Positions 1 to 38,434 of a stretch of DNA of 38,456 bases are shown here, in pieces (positions within the stretch are counted from its first letter, which is position 1; each line of letters begins with the position of its first letter). Under the pieces are notes generated by a model. The model saw only the letters and a list, made by a program, of their open reading frames with translations. It made no database searches and was not told the DNA's origin. Source of the DNA: a phage; the NCBI GenBank assembly GCA_030819375.1, contig GCA_030819375.1_4699.1; one strand, 5' to 3'. The translations under genes and the position numbers were made by a program.

Positions 1-44
1 ACTTTGCCCTCACTTCGTTCGTCGCTGCGGTAGCCTGATGTGTA

Positions 45-170
45 CCTTAGGTTATTCCTTGATGGATAGCTTAGGTTAGCCTTAGGGGGTTGCCTTAGTT
101 AAAGCCTTAGTGCTTCACTTAGTATCAGCTTAGTAGTGTACCTTAGTAAGTCTTAGTGTCTTCTCTTAGT
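45..170. repeat. Array of ~10 CTTAG/CCTTAG short repeats spaced ~11-13 bp (left-end repeat region)
   Basis: CTTAG begins at 46,70,81,94,106,118,129,142,152,165; further scattered copies to ~600; far above chance for a pentamer. Confidence 0.6.
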
Positions 171-400
171 GATTGCACATGTAAGCATGTAAGATGCCAT
201 TAGGTCGCGGTCGGTAGACCGCTAAAGAAGGAGAATAGTAATAAGATGCAGTAGGAGGAACACCAGAAGCCTAGCCAACCTAGCCTATCCTAGCTCTGTA
301 TCTATTGCTCTTCCTTAGTCTCACACGTTAGACAACCTATGTTTATCTTAGTAGTTGTGACATGTATCACATAAATAGTCTATCTTAGTGAAACTTAGTG

Positions 401-429
401 TTGACATAGGCAATCTACAGGTATACATT
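401..429 (+). promoter_or_regulatory. Candidate host sigma70 early promoter
   Basis: TTGACA (401-406), 17-bp spacer, TACATT (424-429); upstream of early genes, analogous to T7 A promoters. Confidence 0.35.
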
Positions 430-552
430 AGCAATCAGTCGGGAGCGACATTAAATACTTAGGGTGAATGATGGAGAGCGTCCTTAACTATCCGGCCTAG
501 CTACTGAAGCCGTTAAACAATGTTAACTAGTGGAAGATGGCGCAAGCATAAC

Positions 553-626
553 CTGCCACGATAAACCAAGGTTAGCGCAACGCTCTTTAACAACTTGCTT
601 AGTGTAACCTATGTATGCCGTGGTTA
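553..626 (+). promoter_or_regulatory. Putative RNase III-type processing hairpin in early transcript (copy 1)
   Basis: Imperfect long inverted repeat (ccacg...cgtgg, aggtta...taacct) enclosing CGCTCTTTAACAA (581-593); same motif recurs at 1208-1220. Confidence 0.3.
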
Positions 627-652
627 ATTACTTATTGAATGAGGAATTAACT

Positions 653-772
653 ATGAGTTTAGCAACGATGAGTTACGAAGAAATGTATGAAGTTTACTTC
701 AACTCCGCTGAGGGAGGCGAGGAAGTCTTATCTTATGCTGAGTTTGTGGAGGTTTATCATGATTCTGAATAA
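653..772 (+). CDS. Small acidic hypothetical early protein (39 aa), below ORF-track cutoff
   Basis: ATG 653 preceded by GAGGA with 7-nt spacing; ORF MSLATMSYEEMYEVYFNSAEGGEEVLSYAEFVEVYHDSE; first ORF after the processing-site-like hairpin. Confidence 0.4.
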   Translation: MSLATMSYEEMYEVYFNSAEGGEEVLSYAEFVEVYHDSE

Positions 773-914
773 CCGCGAATTATCCGTTCTCTTCACCTTG
801 TTATGCTATATGATACATAAAGGTGAGCTGCTCACTAATGATGAGCAAGCCTTGTATGCCCGATTCATCAATGACGGTTGGGTAGATAGCGTAAACAAGA
901 AGGAGAAAGCATAA
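759..914 (+). CDS. Hypothetical early protein (ORF track 687..914; start 759 preferred)
   Basis: Track ORF frame; ATG 759 has GGAGG 7 nt upstream, ATG 687 has no RBS; hydrophobic N-terminal segment. Confidence 0.45.
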   Translation: MILNNRELSVLFTLLCYMIHKGELLTNDEQALYARFINDGWVDSVNKKEKA

Positions 915-1138
915 TGTATCAGCATGAAGTGTTCTTCGAATCAGCTAGTGAAGCTCTCCGCTTCCATGATGATATGATGCAAGCTGGCGTAGGTGTTGAT
1001 GTGTATCACTATTTGATAGATTACGACACTGAATATCACCGAGTTACCTTAGTATCTGAGTATGACAACCAAGTCATTACTGAGTATCTAGGTAGTGAAG
1101 ATTACGATTACGATGAAGTAATCACGACAAATCTCTAA
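914..1138 (+). CDS. Hypothetical early protein (74 aa), acidic
   Basis: ATG overlaps upstream stop (taATG); GGAG RBS; ORF track. Confidence 0.55.
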   Translation: MYQHEVFFESASEALRFHDDMMQAGVGVDVYHYLIDYDTEYHRVTLVSEYDNQVITEYLGSEDYDYDEVITTNL

Positions 1139-1149
1139 ATTAACTATTG

Positions 1150-1262
1150 ATAACCACGGCATACAAGGTTACATTAAGCATCAAGACGGCGACGTCTTTA
1201 AACATCCCGCTCTTTAACAATAAGATTTGTGTCTTGATAGGTTAAACCTAGGAGATTCTCTT
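1150..1262 (+). promoter_or_regulatory. Putative RNase III-type processing site upstream of ocr (copy 2)
   Basis: CGCTCTTTAACAA at 1208-1220 followed by hairpin aggagattctcttgagtctcct; resembles the region upstream of T7 gene 0.3. Confidence 0.3.
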
Positions 1263-1308
1263 GAGTCTCCTATAGTGTAACCTAACTAACTAAATGAGGA
1301 TTAATAAC

Positions 1309-1662
1309 ATGGCTATGTCTAATATGACTTACTCTCAGGTTTACAACACCGCTCATGCTGCATTAGTTGAACGCGTATGGGATGATGCCATTGATTGTAT
1401 TGATAACGCACATGATGCAATCCATGAGGTAGCTGATAGTGCTGTACCAATCTACTATGCTGATATTTTCTCAGTGATGGCGAGTGATGGTATTGACCAC
1501 TTCTTCGAGGATTCTGGATTGATGCCAGACACTAAAGACGTAACGGTTGTCTTACAAGCCCGTATTTACGAACAGCTTACAATTGATTTGTGGGAACGTG
1601 TTCAAGATATGATTGACGCATACATAGACTCAGCCGAGGACTCAGAAGAAGAGGAAGAATAA
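1309..1662 (+). CDS. ocr: Ocr-like DNA-mimic anti-restriction protein (T7 gp0.3 homolog), 117 aa
   Basis: MAMSNMTY...[19 protein letters not shown]...[12 protein letters not shown]...[15 protein letters not shown], acidic C-terminus; near-collinear with T7 Ocr as recalled; GAGGA RBS before ATG 1309 (track start 1294 is probably too early). Confidence 0.9.
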
Positions 1663-1768
1663 GGATGGAAAAGTTATATAACTTCACCTTTTCCGACGGT
1701 GTAACCCTGAAGTGTTCCTTGCGATTTGCACAAATACGTGAGGAAGTCCTAGGAACTACATACAAACT

Positions 1769-1790
1769 ATTTAGCTGACACTATAAGAGA
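1769..1790 (+). promoter_or_regulatory. Variant phage-RNAP promoter-like sequence (ATTTAGCTGACACTATAAGAG)
   Basis: Matches phage promoter consensus except A instead of G at the predicted +1. Confidence 0.4.
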
Positions 1791-1858
1791 AGGCTTAACA
1801 GGGCGTTACTTGTTAGCGCCCGATTAAGTTTATCTCAATAAACCAAATAGGCGACTAT

Positions 1859-2743
1859 ATGACTACTGAAAACATCCTCGTTTCTGTTCGTGAAGCTGCA
1901 ACCGCTGAAATCAAGCAACACTTAGACAATATCGGCACGTCTTACCTCCGTGTCGGCGCTTGTCTGAATGAGTTGCGCGGTGACTTTGAAGGTCAAAAAG
2001 ACTTTTTGGCTTATGTAGAAGCTGAGTTCGGCATCAAGAAAGCACAATGCTACAAGCTGATGAGTGTAGCCCGTGTCTTTGAAGGAGACGAACGCTTTAA
2101 AGGTGTGGCTATGCGTGTAATGTTGGCGCTTGTTCCTTTCGCTGATGAAAATATAATCATGGAGAAGGCCGCAGAACTTGCCGCAGATGGTAAGCTTGAC
2201 ACTAATGCCGTAAACGCCCTGATTGAGCCTAAGAAAGAGCCAAAATCCGAAACGGTACAACCCAAGGCTGAGCCTGTAAAACCGCAGGAGAACGCTACTG
2301 AGGCCGCAGAAACGCAGGAAACGCAAGCGCCGCAGGCAGTACCGCCAATGCGTGAGCCTGACACCGACGAATCTGCACCGTGGGAAGATGAAAGCAAGCC
2401 GGAAGCGCCTAAGGCCGCGCCACTGGATAACACGGCTAACACCGAGAATGCCGCTATGGCTGGCCTGTTGGCACAAATTAAGGCACTGACTGAGCAATTA
2501 CAGGCGGCTAACGATCGCATCGCTGCCCTAACTAGTGCACGTGAAAGCAAGAAGGCAGCCGCACCTATACTTCCTCAGTTCAAATCTAAATGTTTCTATG
2601 CTCGCTTAGGTTTGAGTGCGGAGGAGGCAGAGAAGAAAACAGCAGTAAACAAGGCTCGCCGCGAACTGGTTAAATTGGGGTATGGTGAAGGTCATGAGGC
2701 ATGGGCTTTAATCTCTGAGGCAGTAGAAGAATTAACTAAGTAA
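1859..2743 (+). CDS. Hypothetical early protein (294 aa) with a P/E/A/K/Q-rich low-complexity linker; in the slot T7 uses for gp0.7 but no kinase motifs seen
   Basis: Long ORF in the early region; structured N- and C-terminal parts flank an acidic/proline-rich central region. Confidence 0.7.
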   Translation: MTTENILVSVREAATAEIKQHLDNIGTSYLRVGACLNELRGDFEGQKDFLAYVEAEFGIKKAQCYKLMSVARVFEGDERFKGVAMRVMLALVPFADENIIMEKAAELAADGKLDTNAVNALIEPKKEPKSETVQPKAEPVKPQENATEAAETQETQAPQAVPPMREPDTDESAPWEDESKPEAPKAAPLDNTANTENAAMAGLLAQIKALTEQLQAANDRIAALTSARESKKAAAPILPQFKSKCFYARLGLSAEEAEKKTAVNKARRELVKLGYGEGHEAWALISEAVEELTK

Positions 2744-2800
2744 TCTTATCGGTGGCATCTTCTTAGGTGTCACCTATTAAGGTTTCTTTTAGGAGGACAG

Positions 2801-3176
2801 ATGAGACTTAACATAGAAAGATTTGGTTATAAGGTAGGCTCACATGGAACTATCTTAGGTAAAACAGGAAGACCATTAAGGCAGCATTCTAATGGTGTAG
2901 GTTATTTAGTTGTTCCACTCTTGATAGAAGGCAGAAGGTAGAAATTATGTTAACCACAAAGATGGTAATAAATGGAATAATAAGGCTACTAATCTAGCGT
3001 GGTGTACTAATCAAGAGAATGGCCTACATCATAGGAAAGGTTACATACCAAACATCCAAGAAATAATAGCCAATGCAATAGAGTTACATATGCAAGGTTA
3101 CTCCTATAAAGAGATAGATGCTCGATTAGGGATTTATAAAGGCGCTGCTAGGCGATACATTAATGGCATAAGATGA
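2801..3176 (+). pseudogene. Degraded HNH homing endonuclease (frameshift plus internal deletion)
   Basis: Frame 1 (2801-2941) encodes an N-terminal GY..G...GYLVV motif then stops; the +1 frame (2928-3176) encodes VNHKDGNKWNNKATNLAWCTNQENGLH plus a C-terminal HTH-like tail; the HRLVA..FIPNP segment present in the intact paralog 9556..10035 is missing. Confidence 0.55.
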
Positions 3177-3232
3177 TTATTTGAGAGTATCTAACATTAG
3201 GTACTCAATTAATAACCAATGGAGCCTGATTT

Positions 3233-5860
3233 ATGAAAGATTTATACGAAACCCAACTCATGTTAGAGGAAGAGATGTTCTCTGGTGGTATCCGTCGCTT
3301 TGAAGCGGACCAACAACGCCAGATTGCATCCGGTAATGAATCAGACACGGCATGGAATCGCCGCCTATTGTCTGAGTTAATCGCACCTATGGCTGAAGGT
3401 ATTCAGGCATACAAGGAAGAGTATGAAGGTAAAAGAGGCCGTGCACCGCGTGCATTAGCTTTCATTAACTGCGTAGAAAACGAAGTGGCAGCATATATCA
3501 CGATGAAAATCGTTATGGATATGCTGAACACGGATGTAACCTTGCAGGCTATAGCCATGAATGTAGCTGACCGCATTGAGGACCAAGTACGTTTTAGCAA
3601 GCTGGAAGGTCACGCCGCCAAATACTTTGAGAAAGTTAAGAAGTCACTTAAGGCAAGTAAGACTAAATCATATCGCCATGCGCACAACGTAGCGGTCGTG
3701 GCTGAGAAGTCAGTAGCTGACCGTGACGCTGATTTCTCTCGCTGGGAGGCGTGGCCTAAAGATACCTTGCTACAAATCGGGATGACCTTGCTAGAAATAC
3801 TGGAAAATAGTGTATTCTTCAATGGTCAGCCTGTCTTTCTTCGCACCTTGCGCACTAATGGTGGCAAGCATGGCGTTTACTACTTACAGACTAGCGAACA
3901 CGTGGGTGAATGGATAACTGCATTTAAAGAGCACGTAGCTCAGCTGAGCCCAGCCTATGCGCCTTGCGTGATTCCTCCTCGTCCGTGGGTGTCACCTTTT
4001 AATGGCGGTTTTCACACTGAGAAGGTGGCAAGCCGTATTCGTCTGGTTAAAGGTAACCGCGAGCACGTCCGCAAGCTGACCAAAAAGCAAATGCCAGCGG
4101 TTTACAAGGCTGTTAACGCCTTACAAGCTACTAAGTGGCAGGTTAACAAGGAAGTATTGCAGGTAGTAGAAGATGTTATTCGTCTAGACCTCGGTTATGG
4201 TGTACCTTCCTTTAAGCCGCTCATTGACCGCGAGAACAAACCAGCTAACCCTGTTCCTCTTGAGTTCCAGCACCTGCGAGGCCGTGAACTTAAAGAGATG
4301 CTAACGCCGGAACAATGGCAAGCCTTCATCCACTGGAAAGGTGAATGTACCAAGCTGTATGCCGCTGAAACTAAGCGCGGCAGCAAGTCGGCGGCAACCT
4401 TTCGCATGGTCGGGCAGGCCCGTAAATACAGCCAGTTTGACGCAATATACTTCGTGTATGCACTGGACAGCCGCTCACGCGTTTATGCGCAATCTAGCAC
4501 ACTCTCACCGCAATCAAATGACTTAGGCAAGGCTTTACTACGCTTTACCGAAGGGCAAACCATAAACAGCACTGAGGCGCTTAAGTGGTTTTTGGTGAAC
4601 GGGGCAAATAACTGGGGCTGGGATAAGAAAACTTTTGACGTGCGTACCGCTAACGTGCTGGATGGCGAATTTCAAGACATGTGCCGCGACATTGCAGCCG
4701 ACCCGCTGACCTTCACTCAATGGGTAAATGCTGATTCCCCTTATGGCTTCCTTGCATGGTGCTTTGAATATGCGCGTTATCTGGATGCACTGGACGAAGG
4801 AACGCAAGACCAATTCATGACGCACCTACCCGTCCATCAAGATGGGAGTTGCTCTGGTATCCAGCACTATAGCGCGATGTTACGCGATGAAGTAGGTGCG
4901 AAAGCAGTAAACCTTAAGCCTTCTGACTCCCCTCAAGATATTTATGGCGCGGTTGCGCAGGTTGTTATCCAGAAGAATTACGCCTACATGAATGCAGACG
5001 ATGCAGTGACTTTCACATCCGGAAGCGTCACACTTGCAGGTGCAGAACTGCGTAGCATGGCTAGTGTGTGGGATATGATAGGAATCACTCGCGGCCTGAC
5101 CAAAAAGCCCGTAATGACCCTACCTTATGGCAGCGCACGTCTAACCTGCCGTGAGTCAGTGATTGATTATATCGTTGATTTAGAAGAAAAAGAGGCCCAA
5201 CGAGCTATTGCGGAAGGGCGTACCGCCAATCCTGTACATCCTTTTGATAATGGCCGTAAGGACAGCCTGACACCTGGCGCAGCTTATAACTATATGACAG
5301 CTTTAATCTGGCCTTCTATTTCGGAAGTGGTTAAAGCTCCTATAGTGGCAATGAAAATGATTCGTCAGCTTGCCCGTTTCGCAGCTAAAAGGAATGTAGG
5401 CTTAGAGTATACCTTGCCTACTGGCTTCATCTTGCAACAAAAGATAATGGCGACAGATATGCTCCGCGTATCTACTTGCTTGATGGGAGAAATCAAGATG
5501 AGTCTACAGATTGAAACGGACGTAGTGGATGAAACGGCTATGATGGGCGCTGCTGCTCCTAACTTTGTGCATGGTCATGATGCCAGCCACCTTATCTTAA
5601 CAGTCTGCGACCTTGTTGATAAAGGGATTACATCTATCGCAGTCATTCATGATTCTTTCGGTACTCACGCAGGTCGTACAGCCGATCTACGTGATAGTCT
5701 AAGGGCAGAAATGGTGAAGATGTATCAAGGCCGTAATGCATTGCAAAGCCTGCTAGATGAGCACGAAGAACGCTGGTTAGTTGATACTGGAATCCAAGTG
5801 CCAGAGCAAGGAGAGTTTGACCTTAACGAAATCTTAGTATCTGACTATTGCTTCGCATAA
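3233..5860 (+). CDS. Single-subunit DNA-dependent RNA polymerase (T7 gene 1 family), 875 aa
   Basis: Length and C-terminal ...[13 protein letters not shown] resemble the T7 RNAP terminus (recalled ...NLRDILESDFAFA); conserved palm motifs; matching promoters throughout the window. Confidence 0.97.
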
Positions 5861-5868
5861 TATTAATA

Positions 5869-5899
5869 GGCCATTCCTTCGGGAGTGGCCTTTTCTTTT
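5869..5899 (+). terminator. Intrinsic terminator after the RNAP gene
   Basis: 9-bp GC-rich stem ggccattcc/ggagtggcc with UUCG tetraloop, followed by TTTTCTTTT. Confidence 0.8.
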
Positions 5900-5935
5900 A
5901 CCTACTACCGGTAAAAAATTTCATTAACATAAAGT

Positions 5936-5951
5936 GTCTCACATGTGAGAC
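5936..5951. repeat. GTCTCACATGTGAGAC palindromic hairpin element (copy 1)
   Basis: Perfect 16-bp palindrome immediately upstream of the promoter at 5954. Confidence 0.8.
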
Positions 5952-5953
5952 TT

Positions 5954-5976
5954 ATTTACCGGACACTATAGGATAG
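5954..5976 (+). promoter_or_regulatory. Phage-RNAP promoter (ATTTACCGGACACTATAGG)
   Basis: Matches the recurring consensus; predicted +1 G at 5971. Confidence 0.75.
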
Positions 5977-6117
5977 CCGTCGGAGACGGGAAAGAAAGGG
6001 AAGATAAAGGATATAAAAGGAAGTAATAGGTATTAAAGGTTATATAGGTTATCTAGGAATACCTATTACCTTCTTCCTTCCTCTTATTACCACTTAGAGG
6101 AAGGGCAGATCTAGGTT

Positions 6118-6133
6118 GTCTCACATGTGAGAC
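6118..6133. repeat. GTCTCACATGTGAGAC palindromic hairpin element (copy 2)
   Basis: Perfect 16-bp palindrome immediately upstream of the promoter-like sequence at 6139. Confidence 0.8.
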
Positions 6134-6138
6134 TTCGT

Positions 6139-6161
6139 ATTTACCGGACAGTATAGATAAG
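6139..6161 (+). promoter_or_regulatory. Variant phage promoter-like sequence (ATTTACCGGACAGTATAGATA)
   Basis: Consensus with C-to-G change in the CACTATA core; arranged in tandem with 5954 like the paired promoters at the T7 primary origin. Confidence 0.45.
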
Positions 6162-6186
6162 ACTAACTTACTTTGGAGATTTAACC

Positions 6187-6264
6187 ATGCGTAACTTTGA
6201 GAAGATGACCCGTAAAGCTAACCGTTTGACATGGAAGAAGGGCAGAAGAAAGGCAAGAAGTTGA
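6187..6264 (+). CDS. Small basic peptide (25 aa, MRNFEKMTRKANRLTWKKGRRKARS), T7 gene 1.1-like position
   Basis: GGAGA RBS 7 nt upstream of ATG 6187; below ORF-track cutoff; lies between the tandem promoters and the primase gene. Confidence 0.3.
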   Translation: MRNFEKMTRKANRLTWKKGRRKARS

Positions 6265-9488: not shown

Positions 9489-9596
9489 ATGAATAACTAC
9501 GACTCTGATTGGGATTTCCAAGATTCAATGCAACCTAAACCAGAAAGGAGGGAGGATGAGTTCGAAACAGATCAAATGTACGAGGATTTTTACTAA
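9489..9596 (+). CDS. Small acidic hypothetical peptide (35 aa) overlapping the HNH start
   Basis: GGAGG RBS 9 nt upstream of ATG 9489; MNNYDSDWDFQDSMQPKPERREDEFETDQMYEDFY. Confidence 0.3.
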   Translation: MNNYDSDWDFQDSMQPKPERREDEFETDQMYEDFY

Positions 9597-10035
9597 CTAC
9601 ATCCTCTACTCTGATGGTCGAGTTCTTAACGAGAAAACAGGGCAATACCTAAGAGGTTACTTAGATAAGGATGGGTATCATATTATGAATATTAAAGGGA
9701 AACACCTTAAAGTTCATAGATTAGTTGCTACTCATTTCATACCTAACCCTAATAATTTACCTGAAGTTAACCATAAAGATCATGACCGTCTAAATAATAA
9801 TGATTGGAATCTAGAGTGGTGTACTCATCAAGATAACAACAAGCATAGTTTGCATTTAGTGATAGCTTCTTGTGCTAAACGCTATGACTTTATATCACCA
9901 CAGGGCGTCCATGTAGAAGTCTATAACCTACGTGAATTTTGTAGGAATAATAACCTACAACAATCTCATATGGTTAAGGTAGCTAAAGGTAAAGTAAGAC
10001 ATCATAAAGGTTGGACTAATTATGCTAGATGTTGA
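9556..10035 (+). CDS. HNH homing endonuclease (159 aa)
   Basis: KVHRLVATHFIPNP...EVNHKDHDRLNNNDWNLEWCTHQDN motif; GGAGGGAGG RBS; sits directly upstream of and overlapping the DNA polymerase start. Confidence 0.85.
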   Translation: MSSKQIKCTRIFTNYILYSDGRVLNEKTGQYLRGYLDKDGYHIMNIKGKHLKVHRLVATHFIPNPNNLPEVNHKDHDRLNNNDWNLEWCTHQDNNKHSLHLVIASCAKRYDFISPQGVHVEVYNLREFCRNNNLQQSHMVKVAKGKVRHHKGWTNYARC

Positions 10036-31265: not shown

Positions 31266-34200
31266 ATGGTTGATAGTATTAACCAAAATTGGGTGGCGGT
31301 GACTCAACGCAAGTTACCGCCTACCTTCTCTCAAGTTGCTGAAGCAGAGCGTAAGGCCGAAGCACAGAGAGCTAATGACAAAGTATTCCAAACAGCCATA
31401 GAGAGTGAGTGGGCTTTGTATGGTGGACAACGTGCCTATGAACGCCACACTACAGAGTTTGCTGAACAAGAAGGTTATGAAGTACCTGAATCAACTAAGG
31501 ATGAACTATCCAAGTCGTATGGGTATGAAATAGCGCAAGATATAGTCAAGAATGTGAAGTCTCCAGAAGAGTTGCAATTCCGTATGTCTAATGCTGCTGC
31601 TGATAAAGACAGAGCAGACATCTTAGCACGTAATGGTTTCACAGGTTTCAGCGCACAGATTGCTGCTGGTATTCTTGACCCTGTAGGTTGGGCGACTTCT
31701 CTAGTAGCTGCACCTGTAGCTGGTGCTGTCAAAGTAGGTCGTCTAGGTAGGGTTATCAAGACGGCTGCCTTATCTGGTGCTGAAAATGCTGCATTAGAAG
31801 CTGTGCTTGCACAAGGTGATTACCAGCGAGGTGTCGATGATGTACTGGCTGCTGCCGGGTTTGGTATGATTATGGGCGGTACTATTGGCGCTGCAACTAG
31901 GGAACGCATAGCCAGTGCTGGTTCTCGTACAGCGGCAGAGAGAGCAGAGGCTGTATTTGATGACTTGGACACCGTAGTAAAAGGTGCTGATGAGTTTGAC
32001 TCGTCTGCTGCTCGTGCTGTACGTGAGGCCATGGAGTATGACGCGTATATGGCAGCACGTAATTATGAACCACTTCGTGCAAGAGAGGTGGATGCAGATA
32101 TGGCAATTCTATCTCACACAGACAACTTGAAAGCCAATGCGTCGGTAAGGATGAGTGCTAGAGAGAAAGGACTACTGAAGAAACAGATACGCCAACTGGA
32201 AGCAGAAGCAGCCACACTTAAGGGGAAGAAGATAGATGCTGTAGCAGAGGCTGCCGCCGCTAAGGGTGCACCTAAATCTGCTGCGGACAGATTGGATTTA
32301 GATGTTCAGAAGAAAGCACTGGCACGTAGATTCGATGAACCACTTGCTGATTTACAAGCGCGTCTTGATGAGTTGAATGCCAAGTTATCTCGTGCGAACA
32401 ATGTAGGTAAGGCTAAGGAGGAGCTTAAGAGATTCTCATCGCTGTCCCGTGAAGATCAAATAAAGGAACTAGGTTTAGACGCACCAATGCGTAAGGTGGA
32501 GATGACCCGTGCTGTACGAGATGCAGTAGCTGCAATCCGTGCCGAACGTAAGAAGACACCTACCGAGATACATGCTGAACAAGCTGCAGAAGAGGTAATC
32601 AAGCAAAAGGCAGAGGACTCTATTGGTGCTAAACGTGTTGAAGGTTCAGAGATTGCAGGCGAGCAGTTTGACTTATCTAAAAACATGGAAGAACTTATGG
32701 ATGACTTGGCACGAGAAGCATATCAGTCAGAGGTGCGGCCTATTAATCTTAAGGGTCTAGGTTCAGTGTCTTCTGTGATTCTTAACTCAGAGAATCCTGT
32801 GTTCCGAGGTCTAGGTCTTCGTCTGCTTGAAAATGCTCAAGGTGGTGCATACCAAGGTAAGACAGCTTCTATCTTATCAGATGTGTATGGCAACCTTATT
32901 CGTCATGCAGAACGTAACAGGTACAATGATGGTTTCTCTCAATTCATCAAAGATAACAACCTACGTGCGGTAGATTATCTTAACCCTGCAACGACACGGG
33001 ATTTCAATAATCAGATTTATACAGCAATTGTTCGTGGCATACCAGAAGATACACCTCGTGGTGTTAAACTGGCAGCAGAAGGTATCGCTGATAAACTCAA
33101 GAAAGCACTTGAGATTCGTAAGCAAGCAGGAGAGCATGGATTCGAAGATATACAATCTGCTAAGGATTACATCCCTGTTATCTATGACGGTATCAAGGTT
33201 ACTGAGGCAGTTAACAAATTGGGGAGTAGTGAGGCTGTTATTCACTTACTATCCAAAGGCTACCAGACAGGTAAGTACAAACTTGGCAAGAAAGCTGCGG
33301 ATGCCCTAGCAAAAGTACAGTACATTCGTGCATCGGACTCCACCCTCTCTAGTCGTGTTGCATTCGATAGGGTGGTATCCCAGCAGCAGCAGGCTCAATT
33401 GATTGAGGATCTGAAGAAAGCAGGGGTACCAGACCATATCATTGATAATTTCATTGAAGGTACTGAATTAGCAGAAATGGCTGAATCGGTATCCAATCGA
33501 GCTAAAGCTAGTATGGGTATTAATACGCAAGCCGAATATGGCGGTTTGAAGGTGCAGGATTTGCTTAATACAAACGTAGGGGAGCTAGCGGAGAACTACG
33601 GCAAAGAGGCAGCGGGTGGTGCTGCATTGGCTGCTATGGGTTTCCCTACTCGCCAATCTGTGCTGAACGCAATAGATGCCGCAGAACGCGCAGGCCGCAA
33701 TATGGCGGGGTCAAATGCTAAGGCAATCAAACAGCTTAGGTCTGAGGCAGAAATGCTCAGAGATGCCGTTAAGTTAATTTACGGCAACACTATTGACGCC
33801 GACCCTAACTCTGGAATTGTCAGGGGCACTCGACGTGTCCGTGAGATTACAGGGTTGTTACGATTAGGCCAAATGGGCTTCGCTCAGATACCTGAACTGG
33901 CACGTGCAATCTCTAAGATGGGACTAGGGACTGTGCTGAAGTCTGTACCTGCCACTAAGTTCTTACGTTCGAGAGCGGCTCGTAAAGGTGGCACTGCTCA
34001 GGGTGAGTTGCTTGAACCTGAACTGCGAGAAATGGAGGAACTCTTAGGTTATATCGGGGAGGATAACTGGCTCACAGGGTGGAATGTCCGTCATGATGAG
34101 TTCGGAGAAACTGCGGATAACCTAGGCAAGCTGTCTGCTATTATTGATAACGGATTAGCTATGGGTAGTAGAATCAACACAATACTATCTGGTTTTAAAG

Positions 34201-35069
34201 CAGTACAAGGTGGCTCAGAGAAGATTATAGCTCGCTCTATCAATAAGCGACTAAAGCAACATTTGATGGGGGAGCGACAGTTACCCAAAGCAGATCTTGA
34301 AGAAGTTGGCCTAAGTGAAGATGTCATGAAGAGACTTAAGCGTCACTTTGATGATAACCCAATGTACGCTGATTACAAAGGTGAAAAAGTTCGTATGATG
34401 AACTTTGATGCTATGGAGCCAGACCTGAGAGAGACAGTGGGTGTTGCTGTGCGAAGAATGTCAGGACGTCTTATTCAGCGTAACTTCATAGGAGATGAAG
34501 GTATCTGGATGAATAAATGGTGGGGCAAGGCATTGACCCAGTTTAAGTCATTCTCTATTGTCTCTATTGAGAAACAGCTAATCCATGATTTACGAGGAGA
34601 TAAGATTCAGGCTGCACAGATCCTTGCATGGTCTACCTTACTAGGCTATGCATCTTATGCACTACAGATGCAGATGCAAGCAATTGGTAGGGAGGACAGA
34701 GACAAGTTCTTGAGGGATAAGTTCGAGACACAGAATATCGCTATGGGTGTCTTTAATAAACTCCCACAAGTTGCAGGCTTCGGTCTTGCTGGTGATGCTT
34801 TGGCAACATTTGGCCTAATGCCAGACTCTATGATGCAAGCGCCTGGACGTATGGGGTTCCGTCAGCAAGGGTTTGGTGATTTGGTAGCAGGTGCTGGTGT
34901 GATCAGCGATACAGTTAATTTGTCACAAGCACTAGTTAAGTACGCCAACGGAGATGATGATGTCTCTACTCGGCAGTTGGTGGACAAGGTTCGTCGCCTT
35001 GTTCCTTTGGCAAATACTATTGGTGTAGGTCAGATGACTAAAGCCAGTGTAGACTTATTGGAGGATTGA
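31266..35069 (+). CDS. Large internal virion (ejection/core) protein, gp16-like, 1267 aa
   Basis: Largest ORF of the structural module; AGGAGG RBS. Confidence 0.9.
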   Translation: MVDSINQNWVAVTQRKLPPTFSQVAEAERKAEAQRANDKVFQTAIESEWALYGGQRAYERHTTEFAEQEGYEVPESTKDELSKSYGYEIAQDIVKNVKSPEELQFRMSNAAADKDRADILARNGFTGFSAQIAAGILDPVGWATSLVAAPVAGAVKVGRLGRVIKTAALSGAENAALEAVLAQGDYQRGVDDVLAAAGFGMIMGGTIGAATRERIASAGSRTAAERAEAVFDDLDTVVKGADEFDSSAARAVREAMEYDAYMAARNYEPLRAREVDADMAILSHTDNLKANASVRMSAREKGLLKKQIRQLEAEAATLKGKKIDAVAEAAAAKGAPKSAADRLDLDVQKKALARRFDEPLADLQARLDELNAKLSRANNVGKAKEELKRFSSLSREDQIKELGLDAPMRKVEMTRAVRDAVAAIRAERKKTPTEIHAEQAAEEVIKQKAEDSIGAKRVEGSEIAGEQFDLSKNMEELMDDLAREAYQSEVRPINLKGLGSVSSVILNSENPVFRGLGLRLLENAQGGAYQGKTASILSDVYGNLIRHAERNRYNDGFSQFIKDNNLRAVDYLNPATTRDFNNQIYTAIVRGIPEDTPRGVKLAAEGIADKLKKALEIRKQAGEHGFEDIQSAKDYIPVIYDGIKVTEAVNKLGSSEAVIHLLSKGYQTGKYKLGKKAADALAKVQYIRASDSTLSSRVAFDRVVSQQQQAQLIEDLKKAGVPDHIIDNFIEGTELAEMAESVSNRAKASMGINTQAEYGGLKVQDLLNTNVGELAENYGKEAAGGAALAAMGFPTRQSVLNAIDAAERAGRNMAGSNAKAIKQLRSEAEMLRDAVKLIYGNTIDADPNSGIVRGTRRVREITGLLRLGQMGFAQIPELARAISKMGLGTVLKSVPATKFLRSRAARKGGTAQGELLEPELREMEELLGYIGEDNWLTGWNVRHDEFGETADNLGKLSAIIDNGLAMGSRINTILSGFKAVQGGSEKIIARSINKRLKQHLMGERQLPKADLEEVGLSEDVMKRLKRHFDDNPMYADYKGEKVRMMNFDAMEPDLRETVGVAVRRMSGRLIQRNFIGDEGIWMNKWWGKALTQFKSFSIVSIEKQLIHDLRGDKIQAAQILAWSTLLGYASYALQMQMQAIGREDRDKFLRDKFETQNIAMGVFNKLPQVAGFGLAGDALATFGLMPDSMMQAPGRMGFRQQGFGDLVAGAGVISDTVNLSQALVKYANGDDDVSTRQLVDKVRRLVPLANTIGVGQMTKASVDLLED

Positions 35070-38411: not shown

Positions 38412-38434
38412 ATTTACTGGACACTATAGGAGGA
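38412..38434 (+). promoter_or_regulatory. Phage-RNAP promoter at the window end
   Basis: ATTTACTGGACACTATAGGAGG; +1 G at 38429; followed by an RBS-like AGGAAG as the window ends. Confidence 0.85.

Follow-up and report, generated by a model that had tools for sequence, protein, structure and literature searches.

Early in the 38,456-nt stretch of phage DNA analyzed here (the window), a short open reading frame resembles gene 0.3 of T7, which encodes the DNA mimic Ocr, while the promoters of the same window are of the SP6 type. A sequence-only reading of the window had pointed out this combination and had suggested that it reflects either a mosaic early region or a lineage that retains both traits. 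We asked whether the frame encodes a true Ocr, which phage it belongs to, whether an Ocr is out of place there, and what the gene is likely to do.

An Ocr homolog in the early region

A phmmer search of all PDB chains aligned the window protein to T7 Ocr (PDB 1S7Z) without gaps, residues 1 to 117 on residues 1 to 117, with an E value of 4.6e-41, and T7 Ocr, in 1S7Z and nine further entries, was the sole sequence match among those chains. The two proteins are identical at 74/117 positions (63%). The Pfam family PF08684 ("DNA mimic ocr") was matched at 141.4 bits against a cutoff of 25, over profile positions 1 to 100 of 101, and PHROG 2568 ("ocr-like anti-restriction") was matched with an E value of 5e-49. 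Of the homologs of window Ocr in a database of 5.8 billion proteins, represented by 117 clusters, every cluster representative carried PF08684 (117/117). An AF2 model built from a 38-sequence alignment (pLDDT 89.6, pTM 0.81) predicts the elongated, all-helical fold of Ocr; an earlier single-sequence model was discarded (pLDDT 53.6). When the alignment-based model was compared to the PDB with Foldseek, the top eight hits were all Ocr chains (TM 0.80 to 0.91, rmsd 1.1 to 2.0 Å), followed by hits with E values above 2. The matched Ocr chains include those in complexes with BrxX/PglX, AriA, RNA polymerase, and a type I methyltransferase.

Positions 1309 to 1662 thus encode a genuine homolog of T7 Ocr (gp0.3), whose membership in the Ocr family is evident from its sequence, its predicted fold, its charge, and the place of its gene. 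Both the T7-type homology claimed from the letters alone and the near collinearity with T7 Ocr (117 aa against 117 aa, no gaps) are borne out by the database searches and by a predicted fold that matches only Ocr. The likeness to T7 gp0.3 extends to the N terminus and further identical internal blocks, to the predicted fold (TM 0.83 to 0.91 for T7 chains), to the acidic tail, to the spacing of the ribosome-binding site (RBS), and to an early location ahead of the RNA polymerase gene. In contrast, the region of helix 1 (residues 9 to 35; 20/40 identical) and residues 97 to 109 (7/21 identical) are divergent, and the gene is the fourth open reading frame from the left end in the window but the first in T7. 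ArdA of plasmids and transposons, an acidic dimeric DNA mimic that inhibits type I enzymes (PMC2731889), is unrelated to Ocr in sequence and fold, gave no match to window Ocr, and is a functional analog only.

Start codon of ocr

With the stop codon included in the coordinates, ocr runs from ATG 1309 to the TAA at 1660 to 1662 and encodes 117 aa. The track of open reading frames instead begins at ATG 1294, which is in frame, is the first start codon following a stop, and gives a protein of 122 aa. The sequence-only reading had called this longer version unsupported by an RBS, as it is, and had counted six added residues where there are five (MRINN). We consider it highly improbable that the 122-aa protein is the true product. 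The sequence ahead of ATG 1294 holds no purine-rich RBS, while the GAGG at 1296 to 1299, which lies inside the five-codon extension, is placed for ATG 1309 exactly as in T7 gene 0.3, where both the GAGG and the 9-nt spacing are identical. Counted from ATG 1309, residues 1 to 8 (MAMSNMTY) equal the N terminus of T7 Ocr. The counterpart of the upstream sequence in K1-5 is ATGAGGATTAAATCATG, in which the upstream ATG and ocr are in different frames, which argues that 1294 is not the start, and the RefSeq forms in ACG-C91 and LL11 are 117 to 118 aa long. Judged from these comparisons, the five-codon extension is spurious and translation starts at ATG 1309, the start preferred by the sequence-only reading. 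Coordinates of ocr and of the features around it are given in Table 1.

Table 1. Position of ocr and of neighboring features in the window
Feature	Position	Strand	Basis or remark
Candidate host sigma-70 early promoter, TTGACA-17 nt-TACATT	401..429	+	Best consensus match in 1-3300, 10/12
Candidate host early promoter, TTGATA-17 nt-TACATT, ~130 nt before ocr	1147..1175	+	Consensus match; putative function
CGCTCTTTAACAAT motif	1208..1221	+	Second copy at 581-594 as CGCTCTTTAACAAC
Structured leader: outer stem plus inner hairpin 1249-1272	1231..1290	+	Just upstream of ocr RBS
Shine-Dalgarno GAGG, 9 nt before ATG 1309	1296..1299	+	Read from the sequence
ocr, Ocr-family DNA-mimic protein	1309..1662	+	PDB 1S7Z, PF08684, PHROG 2568, AF2 model, acidic charge
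37-aa ORF, SP6 gp4/K1-5 gp4 family	1665..1778	+	PHROG 11746, E 2e-28; starts 2 nt past ocr stop
First phage-type promoter of the window, ATTTAGCTGACACTATAAGAGAA	1769..1791	+	Downstream of ocr; conserved in K1-5, ACG-C91, and SP6
SP6-type single-subunit RNA polymerase gene	3233..5860	+	Pfam RNA_pol and RPOL_N; defines the phage group

Phage type of the window

The window covers the left ~38 kb of the genome of a K1-5/K1E-like phage in the SP6 group, a member of the genus Vectrevirus (Molineuxvirinae). The RNA polymerase encoded there shares 97% identity with the K1-5 enzyme, 84% with that of SP6, and 32% with that of T7. Eleven phage promoters were found on the plus strand, sharing the core GACACTATAG and the consensus ATTTACTGGACACTATAGAAG, in sequence windows that begin at 1764, 5949, 8216, 8907, 13096, 13559, 14705, 17888, 23065, 36302, and 38407. 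A 14-mer promoter search allowing two mismatches returned 7 matches against 0.6 expected by chance, so the SP6-type promoters reported from the sequence alone hold up. The window consensus is that of the K1-5/K1E variant (ATTTACTGGACACTATAG); it departs at -12 to -10 from the SP6 promoter consensus, ATTTAGGTGACACTATAG.

The gene set comprises endonuclease VII, an 848-aa family-A DNA polymerase, a gp14-like protein together with two large internal virion proteins, and terminase, and gene order and content agree with those of ACG-C91. The SP6-like gene set described by the sequence-only reading is therefore present, except for the further module said to follow the terminase: the window ends 46 nt past the terminase stop and holds only the promoter of that module (38412 to 38434), whose lysis and tailspike genes lie outside it. 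At the nucleotide level, the left 6 kb is 87 to 94% identical to Vectrevirus records, and the right 25 kb is 96.7% identical to Escherichia phage LL11 (Vectrevirus) over 98% of its length.

LL11, the near match of the right 25 kb (96.7%), is absent from the best 30 of 102 records for the left 6 kb, among which the best listed matches are LF31P3, EEc4, and KMB14 at 93 to 94%. From this pattern, the genome appears mosaic at a large scale (positions 1 to 6000 against 13500 to 38456), and the Ocr of LL11 is just 91% identical to that of the window.

Ocr in the SP6 group

In such a phage, an Ocr is the norm. RefSeq annotates an "ocr-like anti-restriction" protein at the same early position in SP6 (gp5, 1637 to 1996), K1-5 (gp3), K1E (gp3), ACG-C91 (gp48), and LL11 (gp06), with the note "inhibitor of host endonucleases" on K1E gp3 and "similar to T7 protein 0.3" on ACG-C91 gp48. 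A tblastn search found Ocr homologs in 572 phage records, 46 of which have an Ocr at least 80% identical to that of the window. The literature is in agreement: a passage of PMC4837284 calls SP6 Gp5 a putative anti-restriction protein, referring to the SP6/K1-5 genome paper of Scholl et al. 2004; Went et al. 2024 found Salmonella BREX to be fully inhibited by SP6 Gp5 (PMC11341690); and a 2026 paper describes an Ocr homolog as conserved among Vectrevirus phages (PMC13005862). An ocr gene in an SP6/K1-5-type phage is thus already known, ordinary for the group, and partly tested experimentally, and the unusualness implied for Ocr alongside SP6-type promoters falls away. Of the two explanations offered by the sequence-only reading, a lineage retaining both traits is mainly correct, as the shared slot across the SP6 group shows, whereas a mosaic origin applies at the level of the allele only, as described below.

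The nearest relatives of the window gene are the Vectrevirus orthologs that we refer to as allele A (ACG-C91 gp48, AAPEc6, LL11 gp06, VEc3, Sem1-4, EC120, and 6948/6949), which are annotated as "ocr-like anti-restriction" or "protein Ocr", occupy the same position, and are 91 to 99% identical, differing by few substitutions. Unlike the window, most of these relatives have a module with a small ORF upstream of the gene. SP6 gp5 (NP_853565) shares the family, the early slot, the small downstream ORF, and the phage promoter, but it is 61% identical to window Ocr and is nearer to T7 Ocr (79%).

Several GenBank records name the Ocr homolog "protein kinase", "serine-threonine kinase", or "receptor binding protein kinase", among them vB-Eco-KMB14, Enterobacter phage E-4, Yersinia YpP-Y, Proteus MidiMira, and PHB19. 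These labels are probably an annotation error propagated from the neighboring T7 gene 0.7.

Charge, dimer interface, and selection

Ocr is dispensable on nonrestricting hosts, and the gene could in principle be a decaying remnant without function. A reader inclined to this view could point out that 10 of the 34 acidic positions of T7 Ocr are gone from the window protein. We therefore compared where charge is kept and where it is lost. Window Ocr has 28 acidic (D plus E) and 4 basic (K plus R) residues, for a net charge of about -24 per monomer, against 34 acidic and 6 basic residues in T7 Ocr; 24 of the T7 acidic positions are kept and 4 are gained, which leaves six fewer acidic residues, mainly in helix 1 and the C-terminal part. 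About 15 conserved acidic residues have been reported as enough for Ocr (PMC3439906), a number that window Ocr well exceeds. In the mutagenesis of Roberts et al. 2012, the activity of T7 Ocr was unchanged after neutralization of aa 12 to 26, 25 to 35, or 92 to 99 and after truncation at residue 99, and nearly so after truncation at residue 109, while the charge block at aa 59 to 91 (mature numbering), with D73, was crucial (PMC3439906). Nine of the 10 charges lost from the window protein fall in the regions tolerant to change in T7 (aa 12 to 35, aa 92 to 99, and the C-terminal tail). In the block at aa 59 to 91, 7 of 8 acidic residues are kept (D60, D63, E67, D68, D74, D77, and E88, counting Met1), the one loss being E65 to F, and the retained D74 corresponds to D73 of T7 Ocr. 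In T7 Ocr, it is this central block that stands in for the bent spacer of type I target sites.

Residues of the dimer interface are likewise preserved. The hydrophobic interface of Ocr includes F54 and L82, and the mutations F54V and L82R allow escape from PARIS (PMC10802264); both residues are conserved in window Ocr in the alignment. Compared with ACG-C91, window ocr has a dN of 0.016 and a dS of 0.64 (dN/dS of about 0.025), a ratio that indicates strong purifying selection. With an intact, full-length frame, this low dN/dS, an allele kept in about 46 genomes, and retention of both the critical charge block and the dimer interface, decay of the gene is scarcely conceivable.

Two ocr alleles in Vectrevirus

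Relationships among Ocr proteins conflict with those among polymerases. Window Ocr is 97% identical to that of ACG-C91, 91% to LL11, 63% to T7, 61% to SP6, and 49% to K1-5/K1E, so that T7, SP6, and K1-5 rank in the opposite order for Ocr (63, 61, and 49%) and for RNA polymerase (32, 84, and 97%). The conflict is sharply bounded. Aligned with K1-5, the window has 97% DNA identity over the 73 nt that precede the start codon; identity falls to 56.5% across the coding sequence of ocr, reaches 100% at the codons of the acidic tail and the stop, and is 90% downstream. As read from this alignment, the window and K1-5 differ by a clean cassette swap of ocr, from the RBS to the acidic-tail codons. The Vectrevirus ocr slot is dimorphic, with two alleles 49% identical to each other between flanks that are 97 to 100% identical. 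The second allele (allele B; K1-5 gp3 and K1E gp3) shares the family and the exact slot with the window gene but encodes a protein of 108 to 110 aa that lacks about six residues before the acidic tail. The ocr locus is thus common to the whole SP6 group, but its alleles do not track the genome tree.

Such a pattern might be expected if the window ocr had recently been captured from a T7-like (Studiervirinae) phage, making the early region a recent mosaic, and exchange between subfamilies is indeed evident elsewhere: SP6 gp5 is 79% identical to T7 Ocr in amino acids and 80.6% identical to gene 0.3 in nucleotides (dS 0.69), and K1-5 gp3 is 83 to 85% identical to gp0.3 of the T7-like Kayfunavirus phages K1F and EcoDS1. 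For the window allele itself, however, synonymous sites relative to T7 0.3 are saturated (pS 0.88, nucleotide identity 64%), and the GC content of ocr (42.1%) matches that of the early region (42.6%). Among the matches listed, the window-type allele is confined to Vectrevirus-like genomes, and the same slot is occupied in all SP6-group genomes examined. We saw no sign of recent T7-like capture of this allele, as identity outside Vectrevirus-like genomes is at most 69% in phage records and at most 71% in the protein database. Because nothing lies between 85% and 71% identity among the 5.8 billion proteins, no plausible recent donor was seen. We therefore regard recent capture as improbable.

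Host systems that Ocr inhibits, or that sense Ocr, could select for the dimorphism if the alleles differ in the defenses that they block or trigger; type I families, BREX, PARIS, Ronin, and EcoR22I are possible agents. We hold this idea only tentatively and think it rather unlikely. The positions changed in PARIS escape are unaltered in the window allele. A link between allele and host type was considered and dropped, since phages isolated on K1 strains include carriers of either allele.

Two records that both bear the name K1E, KY435490.1 and NC_007637.1, apparently carry different ocr alleles: the former aligns with the window ocr region at 90.6% identity, covering 95% of the query, while gp3 of the latter is the 49%-identical K1-5-type allele.

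Leader and candidate promoters of ocr

The gene precedes both the RNA polymerase gene and all phage promoters on the plus strand; no phage-type promoter was found upstream of it on that strand, the first being the one downstream of ocr listed in Table 1. In this respect the window, an SP6-type genome, differs from T7, which has phiOL. Two sigma-70-type sites upstream of ocr are candidates for early transcription by the host polymerase. At the site nearer to the gene, K1-5 and ACG-C91 share the -35 element TTGACA, SP6 has TTGACT, and the alignment shows the -10 block TACATTAAGC to be conserved throughout. Across positions 1 to 3300, sigma-70-like sites were not enriched over shuffled sequence (5 found, 7.0 expected), and because the scan did not exceed this expectation, the sites at 401 and 1147 are kept as candidate promoters, supported by their conservation in related phages.

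The leader between the nearer candidate and the gene may be processed. The CGCTCTTTAACAAT motif is also present in the T7 leader upstream of gene 0.3 and in SP6, K1-5, K1E, ACG-C91, and LL11. In T7, an RNase III site precedes gene 0.3, and by analogy the motif is possibly part of an RNase III-type processing site. The predicted RNA fold of positions 1139 to 1312 is more stable than expected (z = -4.06; 0 of 200 shuffles as stable), and in a consensus structure of 1231 to 1290 from six phages, 4 pairs show compensatory changes, in K1E and SP6. A search of positions 1 to 6200 at E ≤ 1 found no match to any Rfam family. Downstream, the 37-aa ORF is retained behind ocr in K1-5, ACG-C91, SP6, and LL11 and is likely to be translationally coupled to it.

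A near-consensus SP6-type promoter on the minus strand, directed leftward over the leader hairpin (1292..1261; TTAGGTTACACTATAGGAGA), was rejected as a chance match. It has a T at the otherwise invariant -9 G and a G at -16, and one of its bases differs in K1-5, ACG-C91, K1E, and LL11, where the sequence reads ACATTATAG. Compared across these phages, the match is most likely the chance product of a single substitution.

The leader also varies in its content. K1-5 (1290 to 1530) and ACG-C91 (1700 to 2010) have an extra module of ~240 to 300 nt upstream of ocr, between two structured GCTCTTTAACAAT sites, and the two phages have different small ORFs inside it. In the window there is one hybrid GCTCTTTAACAAT-type site, at 1222 to 1240, and no such ORF, as though the module had been lost, or had never entered, by recombination between the repeated sites.

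Proposed role of Ocr during infection

We think it very probable that positions 1309 to 1662 are the Vectrevirus ocr, an ortholog of T7 gene 0.3 that encodes an early anti-restriction DNA mimic. As we picture it, host RNA polymerase would transcribe ocr from the sigma-70-type promoters while the DNA is entering the cell, before any phage polymerase has been made; the structured leader may be processed, as at the RNase III site before T7 gene 0.3; and the GAGG would serve translation from ATG 1309. The acidic protein would then dimerize into a rod resembling bent DNA, and the phage genome would escape cleavage or exclusion. By analogy with T7, host RNA polymerase may be a further binding partner of Ocr, and PARIS-type backup systems may sense the protein.

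The placement of target sites fits this model. The window contains 7 EcoKI, 4 EcoBI, 5 EcoAI, and 4 EcoR124I sites and 37 GGTAAG BREX motifs, all of them downstream of ocr, an arrangement that carries no statistical weight because just 1.3 kb of DNA lies upstream. It fits the T7 model, in which Ocr is made before its targets enter the cell. Anti-restriction and anti-BREX activity of window Ocr would follow the precedent of T7 Ocr and SP6 Gp5, the homologs of known activity, to which it is 63% and 61% identical, respectively.

A different main role can be argued from the same protein. If window Ocr acted chiefly in host takeover, it would bind E. coli RNA polymerase and block recruitment of sigma instead of counteracting restriction. 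T7 Ocr is reported both to bind bacterial RNA polymerase and to inhibit transcription (PMC7064336), PDB 6R9B is among the fold matches, and the fold and charge of Ocr are conserved in the window protein. Yet such a role is compatible with anti-restriction and does not exclude it, the residues best conserved with T7 are those of the central bend block needed against EcoKI, and the homolog SP6 Gp5 acts as a BREX inhibitor. We therefore consider host takeover unlikely as the main role and retain anti-restriction as the preferred one.

Other loci in the window

Several further loci drew attention. The left end carries an array of CTTAG motifs, ten of them at 46 to 165 spaced 10 to 13 nt apart, with 24 nt between the first two, and more at 314 to 394; the first 420 nt hold 14 copies, while the density elsewhere is 0.9 per kb. 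The array is reminiscent of the short repeat arrays beside the terminal repeat of T7-like genomes.

At 1859 to 2743 (plus strand), roughly at the position of the T7 0.7 kinase, lies a gene for a conserved 294-aa early protein of the SP6 gp7 family (PHROG 4571), with a middle part rich in Pro, Gln, Ala, and Glu and without a Pfam domain. An ORF for a 159-aa HNH endonuclease (9556 to 10035, plus strand; Pfam HNH_3; PHROG 59) overlaps the 5' end of the DNA polymerase gene, and among 79 related phage records, just 6 contain the full HNH region (LL11, ULINTec7, and a few Vectrevirus isolates), a distribution that would be expected of a sporadic homing endonuclease. Finally, the internal virion protein encoded at 31266 to 35069 (plus strand) is 1,267 aa long, compared to 1,061 aa for its ACG-C91 counterpart (31611 to 34796).

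Implications for Ocr in K1-5/K1E-like phages

The window gene is of little import beyond its correct annotation. As judged from its sequence, its presence would indicate a phage armed against type I restriction, and probably against BREX, a point that may be of use in predicting host range and in phage therapy with K1-5/K1E-like phages. A phage with this ocr is also predicted to be sensitive to systems that sense Ocr, such as PARIS. For the family, the ocr alleles move as cassettes between and within subfamilies of the Autographiviridae, and they offer a natural series for finding the surfaces of Ocr that decide between inhibition and detection.
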